From positions 416,001-480,000 of the forward strand of contig JAVZJD010000001.1 of assembly GCA_038870975.1 (NCBI GenBank): 64,000 nucleotides of DNA, given 5' to 3'. This stretch comes from Candidatus Bathyarchaeia archaeon. GTDB taxonomy: Archaea > Thermoproteota > CALKCG01 > B24. Below, piece by piece: positions 35,008-39,114 of the stretch. The notes under the pieces were generated by a model. That model did not search any database and had not been told where the DNA came from. It saw only the letters and a list, made by a program, of their open reading frames with translations. Made by a program: the position numbers and the translations under genes. The stretch's first letter is position 1, and each line of letters starts with the position of its first letter.

Positions 35008-35493
35008 GTGGTTTTGAAGATTCTCTGGGCGCCTTGGAGGGCGAAATACGTAGAGAAGCCTGCGGAGAACTGTATATTCTGCGATAAAATCCGTGAAAAT
35101 AAGGATGAAGAAAACTTGATAGTTTTAAGAGGCCGAAGGGTGTTTATAATGCTTAACAGATATCCTTATAATACTGGACATCTCATGGTGGCACCCTATA
35201 GACACATTGCAGATATGGAGGAGCTTAGTGAAGACGAAGCTATGGAGATTTTCAAGCTTTTGACGGAATCTATTAAAGCGCTTAAAAACACCTTTAAACC
35301 AGATGGATTTAACATAGGTGTAAACCTTGGCAGAGCCGCTGGAGCCGGCGTAGAGGGGCATATACATTTTCATGTTGTCCCAAGATGGCTTGGCGATACA
35401 AACTTCATGCCTGTCATTTCTCATACGAAAGTCATGCCTATTTCTCTAGAAGAAGTCTATACGAAGATTAAAAAAAGCATAAAATCCTTTTGA
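35008..35493 (+). CDS. HIT family hydrolase (Ap4A phosphorylase/hydrolase type)
   Basis: WAPWR, CIFC, NRYPYNTGH, HIHFHVVPRW. Confidence 0.94.
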   Translation: MVLKILWAPWRAKYVEKPAENCIFCDKIRENKDEENLIVLRGRRVFIMLNRYPYNTGHLMVAPYRHIADMEELSEDEAMEIFKLLTESIKALKNTFKPDGFNIGVNLGRAAGAGVEGHIHFHVVPRWLGDTNFMPVISHTKVMPISLEEVYTKIKKSIKSF

Positions 35494-35509
35494 AGACTAT
35501 TCATATAGG

Positions 35510-36187
35510 CTAATCACATATTAACGTTCCTATTTTAACACCTTTAACGGCTAATTCAATATTCTCAGGTTTAAAACCGTTTAAAACTATGGTTTTGATT
35601 TTATGTCTAGCTATTAATCTGGCCGCTTTTGGATCTATTATCGTTTTTAAACCTGCTTCATAATGTACACGTCCAAACATATTTTTAAGCTCTTTGAAGC
35701 TTAGATTGTCGATTTTAAAGGCGTCGGGATATCGTGACGGGTCTTTGTTATAGATGCCGTCTCTATTGGTAGCTTTAATCAGCAGATTAAAGCCAAGTTT
35801 AATTGCTGCAAGAACTGCTACAGTATCAGTAGTCATACCTGGCTTAATGCCACCCATAACTACGATGCTGTGTTTTTTAAACAGTTTAGAGACTTCTCCT
35901 ATTCTCTTAGGGATTGTCACGGGAGTTGTTGGTCTTAGTGCTTCAGCTAGCAGTTGGGCGATTACTCGTGATGCTTGTATGGCTATTCTATCTTGACTTT
36001 CTTGGGACATGTTCATCATCTTTGCATTTTCTATCAGTATTCTAGCCAGTTCTCCTCCCCCGGTTACGACGAGTAGTTTAAAACCGTTTTGAGAAAGTTT
36101 ACCTAAAATTTTAGAGTATTCTAGTATAAGAAGTGGATTTAACGGAGAGGCTATGACAGAACCGCCTATTCTAAGCACTATTTTCAT
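35510..36187 (-). CDS. pyrH: UMP kinase
   Basis: IGGSV, VTGGG, PGMTTDTVA, DGIYNKDP. Likely start ATG 36187 after GGTGGTG. Confidence 0.93.
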   Translation of the reverse strand: MKIVLRIGGSVIASPLNPLLILEYSKILGKLSQNGFKLLVVTGGGELARILIENAKMMNMSQESQDRIAIQASRVIAQLLAEALRPTTPVTIPKRIGEVSKLFKKHSIVVMGGIKPGMTTDTVAVLAAIKLGFNLLIKATNRDGIYNKDPSRYPDAFKIDNLSFKELKNMFGRVHYEAGLKTIIDPKAARLIARHKIKTIVLNGFKPENIELAVKGVKIGTLICD

Positions 36188-36208
36188 TGGAAACACCACC
36201 TAAATTTA

Positions 36209-36235
36209 TTTAAACTGACTTCGTCATAGTTTAAA
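36209..36235. promoter_or_regulatory. Inverted repeat TTTAAACT-N11-AGTTTAAA in the pyrH / wHTH-NrdD divergent intergenic region
   Basis: Read directly; the inner TGAC-ttc-GTCA is also palindromic. Could be back-to-back TATA boxes and/or an operator. Confidence 0.45.
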
Positions 36236-36261
36236 ATACTATCTATTGAGAGGAGAGATTT

Positions 36262-38532
36262 TTGAGCAGAATTAGAAGGGGCTTTTCAAATCAAGTTTTT
36301 CAGGTTCTTTCTTCACCGATTAGGTTTGAAGTCCTTAGACTTCTAAGGCTAAACCGTACTTTAACCTATAGTGAAATTATGGATATGCTAGGTTTAGAGC
36401 CAGCTAAACATGCTGGTAAGTTTGCATATCACCTCAGAAGCCTTGTAAAGGCTAGACTTATTGAAAAGACGGATGACGGTAAGACTTATCGGCTTACAGA
36501 CCTTGGGGTTAGAGTTTTAGAGTTCGCTCAAGAGCTTAATGAATATCTTATGAAGAAAGCGGGTAAACTTCTGGTTAGAAGTTCTAGAATGGCTATAGAA
36601 GAGTTTGACAGGCTTAGAATAGTGAATAGTCTTATTAAAGAAGCGCAGGTTCCTTTAGACTTGGCCGAATCTATTTCGCTTGAAGTTGAAAGAAGACTTG
36701 TAAACCTTCAGGTTAAATATTTAACTGCTCCACTTATACGAGAAATAGTTAATGCAATTCTCATAGAGAAGGGGCTTGAGGAGTATAGGCATAGACTTAC
36801 AAGACTCGGCCTTCCAGTTTACGACGTCGTTAAAACATTTGAAAAAGCTAGTACGATGAAAATGCACGTCGAAGAAGTTAGAGAAATAGCTGGTGAAGCA
36901 GTTTTAAGAGAATATACTCTTTTAAACGTTCTACCTAGAGACGTTGCCGACGCATACTTAAGTGGAGACATACATTTAGAACTCCCAGGGTCTTGGATAC
37001 TTAGACCCGACGTCATCCAACATGACATACGGCTGATTCTGACGGGTAAGTTTCCAAACATGCCCAGTAAAAGCCCAACGACGTTAACTTCAGCATTAAA
37101 CAGGCTTAGGGTTGCCGCCTACAACAGCAGTTTTGAGGTTAATTTAGACCAGGGATTTGACATGTTCAACGTCTTCTTAGCGCCTTTCACCAGAGGAAGA
37201 AGGCTTGTGGAAGTTAAACGGGCGCTTCAAGTATTCATAGAATCTATGAGAATCTCCTCAAATCTCAACGTCAACTTTGGATTAGAAGTGGGTTTAAATC
37301 GGAAGATTGAAAACCTTAAAACTATACCTGGTGGAGAAGTTTATGGAGACTATCGAGATGAAGTTTTAACGTTTACACAAGCTCTTATAGATGTCTTAAA
37401 GAAGGAGTATTCGAGGAGCCCACTCTACAATTTCAATTTGACAATCAAGATTAGAGAATGGCCTCTGAAAGACGAGTGGATAGAAGTAATGAAGAGCATA
37501 CACGATGCTGCGAAGTTTGGCATACCCATTGTAATAGCTAATCTAACGGATGTAGATGATAACACCAGCTTCTCAAGCTATGGATTTAGATTTGAGCCTC
37601 TTTCAGACTGGGAAGTGGATACGCTAGCAGTACCTATGATTGTAGACGTTTCCATAAACATGCCTAGGCTCGCTCAAATATCTAAAGGAAGCGATGAACG
37701 CCTCTGGGAGAATTTACAGAAGATAATGGACAAGGCTATTGAAGCAATACATATTAGGAGGGGGGCTTTGGAGAGCCGGATTAAAGAGGGGCTTCTACCG
37801 AATATTTCTCAACCAGACGATCCATATGTGAGGTTTAAAGCCATGTTTTCAGCTCTTGGACTATTTGGACTTAATGAAGCCACTGTTCTACACACAGGCT
37901 CAGACCTTACGAGCACTACATCACAAGCTGCTATGCTTAGAGTTTTAAGGCGTATACGCGCATACTTAGATGCAAGTAGAGATAGAATTGGATTGACGAG
38001 TATATGCGGTGAAGAGGGCGCATCTAGGCTTGTAAATCTAGACCTCAATAACTACGGTAAATCCATCTTAAACAGTCAAGGTTTCAGGAGAGAGCCATAC
38101 TACACCGATGTATGCGTAGTGCCTTTAGAATACGGCATACCGCTTTCTAAAAGGCTTGAAATAGAGGAGAAAGTGGGTTCTATAATGAATTATGGAACTC
38201 TTCCAGTCATAGAGGTGAATTCGAACGAAGTTGATGGTGAAACTCTCTTTAAGACGACATCATACATAGTGTCCAAGTATAAGCAACTCAGATGCTTCAC
38301 ATACTCGACCTTCACAACGTACTGTAAACGATGCTCTAAACTGTTTGAAGGCTATTGGGATAGATGCCCGAAGTGTAGCAACATAGCTACCGTAGTTCAA
38401 TACGGCAGAACTCCAACCCTAGTTAAACCAATATACAGGTGGACTTCTGAAAAAAGAGCAAATATGTTTCTAAGAAAAGCTTACGGTGTTAAAGACATCG
38501 AATCCTTAACCCCTATTTTAAGCCCGGCTTAG
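36262..38532 (+). CDS. wHTH (ArsR-like) + ATP-cone + degenerate class III ribonucleotide reductase (NrdD-like), predicted catalytically inactive
   Basis: N-terminal wHTH ([11 protein letters not shown]...FAYHLRSL...YRLT), ATP cone (VRSS...FDRLRI), NrdD core (GDIHL, INMPRLA, GLNEA, YYT) and Zn CxxC/CxxC. Catalytic Cys residues and the RxxGY Gly are absent. Confidence 0.88.
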
Positions 38533-38993
38533 AATTGATTTATAATATCTTCTCTAGTCATAACTATTCTGCAGTAGTGGCATCTAAGCCTTAGAGGTTC
38601 TACGCTTTCAACGATAAACGTAGGTTGAACGGGTTCTCCGCTGTTTGTTATACAGGATGCATTCGCACATTTGATCACGCCCTTTATGATTTTTGGAAGT
38701 TTAACTTTATTCTTTTCAACTACCTCATAGTTCCGTATAATGTTTATGGTGGCGTTTGGAGCTATTAGAGCTATTTTATGGACTTCATCTTCTCTAAGCT
38801 CTCGATTCTCAACCTTCACAATATCTTTTCTGCCGAGCTTTTGACTTGGGACATTCATAAGAATACTTATAATATTGCCCTCTTTACCGGTTAATCCTAT
38901 TATCCTGAGAACCGCTAAAGCATATCCAGCAGTTATGTGGTCTATGACGGTTCCATCTTCAATCTTGCTAACTCTCAGCTCTTTTTCAACCAT
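38529..38993 (-). CDS. pyrI: Aspartate carbamoyltransferase regulatory subunit
   Basis: [26 protein letters not shown]4-C...CxxC. Confidence 0.97.
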
Positions 38994-39114
38994 AAAGCCA
39001 CCCTTTTAAGTGTACTAAACTAAATCTAAAATAGATTTACTTTAAAAAGCTTACAGCTTCCATAATTCCGCTGGATTTCTCGATAAGTTAGATAAACTCA
39101 GGTAGTTTTCAAAT

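Follow-up and report, generated by a model that had tools for sequence, protein, structure and literature searches.

A winged helix fused to a dead class III ribonucleotide reductase in Bathyarchaeia and ammonia-oxidising archaea: a candidate NrdR-like regulator

The locus and the encoded protein

The window analysed here is a stretch of 64,000 nucleotides from Candidatus Bathyarchaeia archaeon (GenBank assembly GCA_038870975.1, contig JAVZJD010000001.1, positions 416,001 to 480,000). One of its genes encodes a protein in which a winged helix-turn-helix (wHTH) is joined to an ATP-cone and to the barrel and zinc ribbon of NrdD, the class III (anaerobic) ribonucleotide reductase (RNR), with the residues of the radical chemistry replaced. 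We refer to this protein and its orthologues as the family; the features of the locus are collected in Table 1. The open reading frame (ORF) begins with TTG, runs for 756 codons with zero internal stops and is preceded by a Shine-Dalgarno-like GAGGAG element. Both the TTG start and the N-terminus are retained in the orthologues L013-L017.

Table 1. Features of the family gene and of the DNA on either side of it (positions in the window)
Feature	Position	Strand	Description
Divergent neighbour, amino-acid-kinase family, read as UMP kinase pyrH (name inferred)	35510..36199	-	Pfam AA_kinase 3.7e-28
Divergent promoter region shared with pyrH	36200..36261	.	Pair of inverted TATA-like boxes (TTTAAACT ... 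AGTTTAAA) enclosing a TGACTTCGTCA palindrome at 36216-36226
Whole family gene	36262..38532	+	756 aa: wHTH, ATP-cone, dead NrdD barrel, Zn ribbon
ArsR-like winged helix-turn-helix (DUF7347)	36289..36522	+	Residues 10-87; Pfam DUF7347 2.4e-11
ATP-cone	36574..36786	+	Residues 105-175; hairpin VRSS, non-canonical; best conserved region of the family
NrdD-like ten-stranded barrel	36853..38484	+	Residues 198-741; Pfam NRDD 3.7e-51
V251, at the βA catalytic Cys position	37012..37014	+	Alignment; RPDVIQHD vs RPFCQDWD
Former finger (thiyl) loop	37567..37599	+	Residues 436-446; F442 at the Cys position
Retained Zn ribbon	38323..38376	+	C688/C691/C702/C705, CxxC...CxxC
Former glycyl-radical loop GRTPTLV	38404..38424	+	T719 at the Gly, L720 at the Tyr position
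Convergent neighbour pyrI (aspartate carbamoyltransferase regulatory chain)	38529..38993	-	Pfam PyrI 7.1e-35 and PyrI_C

The N-terminal domain scored 44.2 bits with the Pfam model DUF7347, over its cut-off of 27.6 bits. The Pfam models HTH_20 and HTH_5 matched it with E-values of 2.1e-5 and 3.3e-4, both sub-threshold, and the matches to ArsR structures in the PDB (6j0e and 6j05, E 0.13-0.16) were weak, with the pattern F.vL..P.R..IL / HL+.L. For the ATP-cone the Pfam score was 25.6 bits in hmmscan, against a cut-off of 25.8, and 30.5 bits, over the cut-off, in a six-frame search. The barrel passed the Pfam model NRDD (PF13597) with 174.9 bits at a cut-off of 26.2. With the NCBIfam NrdD equivalog TIGR02487 it reached 167.7 bits, about half of the cut-off of 326.35, and its scores with the remaining NCBIfam NrdD equivalogs were likewise far under their cut-offs.

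The AlphaFold2 model, made from a 121-sequence alignment, had a mean predicted local distance difference test score (pLDDT) of 89.5 and a predicted template-modelling score (pTM) of 0.81. Its top Foldseek matches were all class III RNRs, from S. thermophilus (9dca), P. copri (8p2s), T. maritima (4u3e/4coj) and phage T4 (1hk8), with E-values from 1e-24 to 1e-13, target-normalised template-modelling scores of 0.62-0.74 and identities of 13-17%. A profile of the family matched the NrdDs of the PDB at E-values of 2.6e-39 to 2.6e-23.

The scan of one genome per species gave at least 581 stretches that encode a relative, and the best 80 of them, together with the window, make up the 81 orthologous loci compared below. 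The zinc-ribbon cysteines C688, C691, C702 and C705 are present in 81, 81, 80 and 80 of these loci, respectively. We observed that the mean consensus frequency is 0.79 in the cone and linker, 0.64 in the wHTH, 0.53 in the barrel and 0.37 in the C-terminus. The cone hairpin has V-R-S-S where class II cones have V-[IK]-K-R-D-G, and the C-terminal Y-R-x-[RK]-x-x-R helix of the cone is retained. Since the same VRSS variant is carried by the nearest canonical archaeal NrdDs, the variant cone is probably functional.

Catalytic loss, purifying selection and phylogeny

The catalytic positions were located in a MAFFT alignment of the family protein with the canonical NrdD of the same genome and 147 database representatives. 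The residues 248-255 (nt 37003-37026) pair with the βA motif, with V251 at the Cys of RPFC, and no Cys occupies this column in any of the 81 orthologous loci. According to the accessible part of the preprint 10.1101/2022.04.23.489257, the βA Cys is conserved in 92.6% of class III RNRs. The loop SFSSYGFRFEP, which includes SSYGFR (residues 438-443, nt 37573-37590), pairs with the finger loop CCAYNF and contains zero Cys; the column of F442 is Cys in 22/22 canonical NrdDs. The former glycyl-radical loop pairs with SRVTGYY, and T719 thus occupies the Gly position (RTPTL, residues 716-720, nt 38407-38421). A Gly is found in this column in two of the 81 orthologues and the motif R[IV]TGY in none.

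The loss extends to other positions of the former active site. In NrdD, roles have been described for the NxN substrate flap, the substrate-bridging Glu, the Gly-Tyr pair and the two Cys (PMC11226230, in its accessible part). Altogether 65 positions are at least 85% conserved in the 22 canonical NrdDs but less than 50% conserved in 56 family members; the NxN flap, the two Cys and the substrate Glu are among them, as are the YTNS stretch and the Gly-Tyr pair. In the flap columns 100% of the canonical NrdDs have N/A/N; the family protein of the window has K195/A196/T198 there, and the family as a whole is variable. The substrate Glu column holds Glu in 100% of the canonical NrdDs and in 29% of the family, with E584 in the query itself. 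Conversely, five positions are conserved specifically in the family, every one in the cone or linker. From these two patterns the former active site seems to have been released from constraint, and it looks decayed rather than kept or rebuilt as a sensor. We consider the dead-enzyme reading secure.

The finger-loop Cys remains, as TGCR, in 10 of the 81 orthologues (L035, L040, L047, L054, L058, L059, L074, L076, L079 and L081), nine of which have a second NrdD-family gene directly downstream. Such a pattern hints that these members form a subgroup with less decay, or that gene conversion has occurred.

To measure the constraint on the ORF we used the Nei-Gojobori ratio of nonsynonymous to synonymous substitution rates (dN/dS) against four orthologues at 83-86% identity, for which dS, at 0.9-1.3, was high but unsaturated; for L017, a fifth orthologue at 66% identity, saturation precluded a ratio. 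The dN/dS was 0.07-0.09 for the whole ORF, with 0.02-0.07 in the wHTH, 0.02-0.04 in the cone, 0.08-0.11 in the barrel and 0.05-0.10 in the C-terminus. The housekeeping neighbours XPD, pyrH, pyrI and HIT gave values of 0.02-0.13. With dN/dS this low across the ORF, a decaying pseudogene was rejected.

The family is large. Of 8000 candidates scored in a word-indexed search, 1321 were relatives, and an exhaustive HMMER search found 268 cluster representatives at E ≤ 1e-30. Almost all of the best 120 relatives have the DUF7347, ATP-cone and NRDD domains in about 750 amino acids and come from metagenome-assembled genomes of Bathyarchaeia; database entries call the relatives either 'anaerobic ribonucleoside-triphosphate reductase' or 'helix-turn-helix domain-containing protein'. 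Each of the 17 genomes in the window's class has exactly one family copy and a canonical NrdD. In a phylum sample of 401 genomes, 330 have some NrdD-like match, and at least 116, among the matches listed, have one that begins inside the winged helix at E ≤ 1e-150. The taxon names of the relatives rest on source names, locus titles and Atlas cluster labels. Relatives in Asgard and DPANN archaea are known from Atlas cluster labels and are leads only.

A FastTree phylogeny of 135 rows has one branch (support 100) that parts the rows with a wHTH from the rows without it, including all 22 canonical NrdDs. The same single split was recovered by IQ-TREE after removal of the wHTH columns (Shimodaira-Hasegawa-like approximate likelihood ratio test 100); this tree had 58 rows, comprising all 22 canonical ones and 36 with a wHTH, of which 33 were random and the others were the query and two selected relatives. 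Since both trees are unrooted, the wHTH proteins form one clade provided that the root lies on the canonical side. Among the representatives of at least 600 amino acids, the motif R[IV][TSG]GY occurs in none of the 83 with a wHTH compared to 22 of the 40 without it. On these alignments and trees, the family is an old, single branch apart from the canonical NrdDs, spread through Bathyarchaeia and the ammonia-oxidising Nitrososphaeria.

The canonical branch also holds NrdD-like proteins that have no wHTH, no βA Cys and no Gly motif (P0189, P0201, P0259, P0261, P0229, P0256 and P0234; L096 1677-3584). They may be independent pseudoenzymes, some perhaps fragments.

The full-text literature that we searched holds no description of the family, supplements, which might list such sequences, being outside the scope of that search. 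Similarly, dead wHTH fusions are not discussed in the accessible part of the RNR phylogeny preprint cited above.

Several of these results bear on an earlier note on the same DNA, which was written from the sequence without database searches. It had described a wHTH, an ATP cone and an NrdD fold with its Zn site in an intact 756-codon ORF, and the Pfam domains, the four Zn Cys and the uninterrupted frame agree with this description; structure modelling, which it had proposed as a check, gave a confident class III RNR fold. The Cys, Cys and Gly losses and the motif coordinates that it gave proved right on the alignment, and so did the pseudoenzyme claim built on them. The archaeal NrdD motifs that it had used for comparison were off in their details, the local comparator having RPFCQDWD, CCAYNF and RVTGYY, although the conclusion drawn from them holds. 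Strong purifying selection and conservation of the fusion, both named there as things to be checked, were found, and the relatives bear the nrdD label that it had predicted pipelines would give. The intact effector sites that it had set out to confirm did not gain support: the cone is the best conserved part of the protein, yet it has VRSS instead of VKRDG.

As to expression, short contigs from two metatranscriptome runs of one study (at least 99% and about 98% identical) cover positions 36877-37286, 37455-37633 and 37616-37760 of the family gene, and also pyrH at 35601-35853. This is a weak hint of transcription, since the evidence consists of contigs only, DNA carry-over is possible and the uncovered stretches are uninformative. 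DNA near-identical to the window at 35400-39100 was seen in 12 runs (at least half of the sampled words), 10 of them labelled hot springs metagenome and two with a coded organism label, which suggests a widespread hot-spring population carrying this DNA, although one of the 12 may be the sample from which the assembly came.

Linkage to ribonucleotide reductase genes

In 20 of the 81 loci the family gene is directly followed, in the same orientation, by a second ORF of the NrdD family. Thirteen of these ORFs have R[IV]TGY, three are cut by contig ends and four are without the exact motif. In five of six tandem pairs taken from other genomes the downstream gene has RPFC, SQCCR and RITGYY. A gene for a small CPxC redoxin is found directly downstream of the family gene in 7 loci, mostly between it and the second ORF. 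By eye only, an element similar to TTTATACA-N4-TGTCTAAAA recurs upstream of the tandem nrdD genes.

The genome of the window (an assembly of 1.85 Mb, 92.9% complete) carries its canonical nrdD elsewhere, at G000:C1:213983-217276 (loci L002 and L005). This gene has the SRVTGYY motif, and an intein sits exactly at its finger-loop Cys (…CYQ/C…HN/CCAYNF). The only NrdG of the genome (TIGR02495, 194.5 bits) is encoded directly after it, about 235 kb from the family gene. A class II RNR with a textbook VIKRDG cone is encoded in the genome as well. No NrdG was found in the window, where the sole radical-SAM match scored 39.5 bits against a cut-off of 131. No NrdR was found in the genome: the best TIGR00244 match (17 bits against 124.65) is away from the family locus and contains stop codons, and the family locus itself has zero matches to this model.

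Some further proteins were observed along the way. Many canonical archaeal NrdD representatives are 1100-1700 amino acids long, and in some of them the βA Cys, too, is the site of an insertion (RPF/…/C). In the genome of the window, at G000:C1:~753300-756500 (L103), an open frame of 826 amino acids joins a further DUF7347 winged helix (58.7 bits) to a large, apparently HdrA-like Fe-S/FAD protein; this would be another fusion of a wHTH with an enzyme module. At G000:C2:413041-413874 (L100 1495-2328), directly after a thioredoxin reductase-like gene, a protein of 277 amino acids has an N-terminal ATP-cone (32 bits) and a C-terminal domain that we could not assign.

A divergent, shorter branch of the family (560-720 amino acids) carries Nitrososphaeraceae source names, and some of its members have Joint Genome Institute labels such as 'DNA-binding transcriptional ArsR family regulator'. 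In one closed genome with amoA (G017; 389 bits), a protein of 699 amino acids with DUF7347, ATP-cone and NRDD is encoded directly upstream of the class II RNR gene. We observed the same arrangement across a sample of 41 genomes from the amoA-bearing taxonomic family, 40 of which have the family protein and 40 a class II RNR. The two genes adjoin in 37 of 40 cases (in 36 both are on one strand with the family gene first, and in one they are divergent), and in the other three they are on different contigs. None of the 41 genomes has an NrdG, at E ≤ 1e-18 or over the cut-off. No canonical NrdD was found in them either, as the NRDD matches (in 39 of the 41) coincide with the family gene. Therefore, the family is kept where the glycyl-radical RNR system is wholly absent, and it tracks the RNR that the lineage has.

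The ammonia-oxidiser proteins stop just past the Zn ribbon. An active NrdD was rejected on three grounds, namely the replaced radical residues, the relaxed canonical positions and these carriers without NrdG. Two further lineages, with the genomes G032 and G025 (98-99% complete), encode members of 602 and 529 amino acids, divergent from a carbamoyltransferase gene; neither has an NrdG over the cut-off. One ammonia-oxidiser family gene (G414:C1:1756001-1758057) is broken by a TGA into open frames of 509 and 292 amino acids.

In 20 ammonia-oxidiser loci (L118-L137) we inspected the spacer that separates the family gene from the class II RNR gene, nrdJ. With at most two mismatches, the palindrome TATGAAnTTCATA occurs in 13 of them, compared to a mean of 0.97 and a maximum of 4 in shuffled spacers, and in 11 of the 13 it is about 110-122 nt upstream of the predicted start of nrdJ. 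Perfect copies number 1-2 per genome in four closed genomes, one always at nrdJ. Since the genomes are related, this conservation is partly inherited. We regard the palindrome near nrdJ as a candidate site only. Most of these spacers, judged by eye, also contain GGTGTCAA-N6-TTGA as a second element.

Function and comparison with known systems

The interpretation that we favour, with confidence somewhat above even, is that the family protein is a nucleotide-sensing transcription regulator of deoxyribonucleoside triphosphate (dNTP) and pyrimidine supply, an analogue of NrdR. It rests on domain logic, on the pattern of constraint and on the recurrent association with RNR genes; that the protein binds DNA and senses nucleotides is what we infer from them, and so are its target genes and the sense of control (repression or activation). 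The winged helix would bind promoter DNA, and the conserved ATP-cone would read the adenine-nucleotide (ATP/dATP) state. The dead barrel and the Zn ribbon would mainly provide a scaffold for dimerisation, through which nucleotide binding is coupled to DNA binding. In this way the protein would control the genes of dNTP supply (the RNR genes) and possibly pyrimidine genes (pyrH, pyrBI).

An NrdR-like role had been proposed in the earlier note, which had also reported no NrdG in the window and had suggested looking for a separate intact RNR. The real NrdG proved to lie elsewhere in the genome, next to the canonical nrdD, and the class II RNR was found in addition. Comparative support for the regulator idea is strong: there are family genes directly upstream of nrdD in Bathyarchaeia and of the class II RNR gene in ammonia oxidisers, which have neither NrdD nor NrdG.

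Several observations weigh against a nucleotide-sensing regulator of RNR genes. The wHTH falls under the curated cut-offs of the ArsR-type models (HTH_5, 20.9 vs 22 bits; HTH_20, 24.8 vs 27; NF033788, 32.2 vs 55), and a winged helix can also mediate protein contacts. The cone does not have the canonical K-R-D-G hairpin, and its Pfam score is at the threshold. In the genome of the window the family gene adjoins no RNR gene; its neighbours are pyrH and pyrI, with pyrB elsewhere. The neighbourhood evidence is only correlative, related genomes not being independent observations. Upstream of the family gene, 77 loci yielded neither a palindrome nor an operator that is conserved, and no motif common to the nrdD, nrdJ and family-gene promoters was found in this genome.

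The candidates considered in these promoter searches were as follows. The inverted-repeat census of the 77 upstream regions gave AT-rich, TATA-like repeats only, in at most 6 loci (shuffled maximum 3). The TATA-like boxes of the window are conserved in L013-L016; the TGACTTCGTCA palindrome between them is not, and was rejected as an operator. The sole 8-mer common to the nrdD, nrdJ and family-gene promoters, GACTTCGT, was rejected too, being about what chance would give.

The strongest competitor holds that the protein chiefly regulates pyrimidine synthesis (pyrH, pyrBI) and not the RNR genes, at least in the lineage of the window, sensing a nucleotide and controlling the divergent pyrH promoter. 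The window gene is divergent from pyrH over 62 nt and convergent with pyrI, which overlaps its stop codon by 4 nt. Among the 81 loci, pyrI is present in 24 and pyrB in 24; one or the other is downstream in 31, and where the flank reaches 4.5 kb or more this holds for 26 of 52 loci. The family genes of G032 and G025, with their divergent carbamoyltransferase gene, point the same way. Still, pyrI and pyrB are mostly convergent or several kb off, and not co-oriented with the family gene, and pyrH is upstream in 9 of the 81 loci only. The tightest and widest linkage is that to RNR genes. The two roles are compatible, and we judge an exclusive or chief role in pyrimidine synthesis unlikely.

HIT, XPD, ASCH and TmcA genes are also near the family gene in the window. 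The earlier note had taken pyrH, pyrI and HIT together as neighbours that fit a regulator; the pyrimidine part of this argument has partial backing from the counts above, whereas HIT is a neighbour in the three closest relatives only of the 81 loci. Within Bathyarchaeia (L013-L092), pyrB and pyrI are divergent from each other, with no pyrBI operon. In the genome of the window, pyrI stands alone beside the family gene, and the two carbamoyltransferase genes are found elsewhere, at C2:533799-534269 and C1:181138-181587.

Less probable again is that the protein works off DNA, as a pseudoenzyme partner that modulates an active RNR or another protein, for example in a heterodimer with NrdD, the winged helix being a protein-contact module. 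NrdD does act as a dimer, the family keeps the barrel fold and the Zn ribbon, and it stands in tandem with nrdD in 20 of the 81 loci. However, 40 of the 41 ammonia-oxidiser genomes have the family without any NrdD to pair with. Moreover, the wHTH retains a recognition-helix pattern like that of ArsR, and only the cone is more strongly constrained; the short members keep the wHTH and the cone while losing much of the barrel signal. Finally, that the barrel has acquired a new non-radical catalysis, or still reduces ribonucleotides with displaced residues, seems very improbable: the intact ORF under purifying selection, the residues N466/P468/R469, G536/E539, R589, D594 and G645 kept in both the family and canonical NrdDs, and the TGCR loop of 10 of the 81 relatives would fit it, but the five family-specific positions, all in the cone or linker, leave no new active-site signature visible, the βA Cys and R[IV]TGY are found in 0/81 loci, the ammonia-oxidiser proteins end just past the Zn ribbon in genomes without NrdG, and the NCBIfam NrdD scores are far under the cut-offs.

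Returning to the regulator reading, it would make the family protein an NrdR-like nucleotide-sensing regulator of RNR genes built from a recycled RNR. A bolder version is tentative, and we would not presume it: the family might be the missing archaeal master regulator of dNTP supply, a winged-helix repressor made from a duplicated RNR. To read the nucleotide pool it would use its ATP-cone, perhaps together with the former specificity site where the barrels meet in the dimer. The protein would control whichever RNR the lineage has: in the anaerobic Bathyarchaeia this would be nrdD, and in the ammonia oxidisers, which are aerobic, the B12-dependent class II enzyme. In the hot-spring Bathyarchaeon studied here it would control pyrimidine genes as well.

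The regulation of RNR genes in archaea is largely unknown, and the family is near-universal in two large, ecologically important archaeal groups (17/17 genomes of the window's class and 40/41 of the ammonia-oxidiser family). The label 'anaerobic ribonucleotide reductase' wrongly implies anaerobic dNTP synthesis, even in obligate aerobes, and thereby distorts metabolic reconstructions from metagenomes. If the regulator reading is true, an essential radical enzyme has been recycled into a regulator of its own pathway. Since cultured ammonia oxidisers carry the family, the idea is directly testable.

Among known systems, the closest in logic is NrdR, a bacterial RNR-specific repressor of about 150 amino acids with an N-terminal Zn ribbon and an ATP-cone. 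The family protein, too, combines a DNA-binding module (as predicted) with an ATP-cone, its gene is adjacent to RNR genes in many genomes, and it would fill the role of regulator where a genome has no NrdR. In archaea NrdR is rare, as stated in the accessible part of PMC9110341. The two proteins are not homologous as wholes: in the family, an ArsR-like winged helix replaces the Zn ribbon, a dead NrdD barrel of about 550 residues is added and the cone hairpin is VRSS, not KRDG. Neither a TIGR00244 match nor an NrdR-box-like operator was found for the family gene.

With NrdD the family shares the fold, the order of cone, barrel and Zn ribbon and a clear sequence homology, as a sister branch of the archaeal NrdDs. 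It differs in having no βA Cys, finger-loop Cys, Gly-Tyr pair, NxN flap or NrdG of its own, and in the added wHTH. The likeness to ArsR/SmtB regulators is confined to the N-terminal 95 residues, which align with them and keep the pattern of helix-turn-helix and wing. Here, however, the best model is the uncharacterised DUF7347, and the sensor module would be an ATP-cone with a dead enzyme, not a metal site.

The family can also be set beside the enzyme-derived regulators BirA, PutA and NadR, in which a DNA-binding domain is fused to an enzyme module that reads a metabolite. Those regulators keep their catalytic activity, whereas the enzyme module of the family has lost it, and its parent was an RNR.

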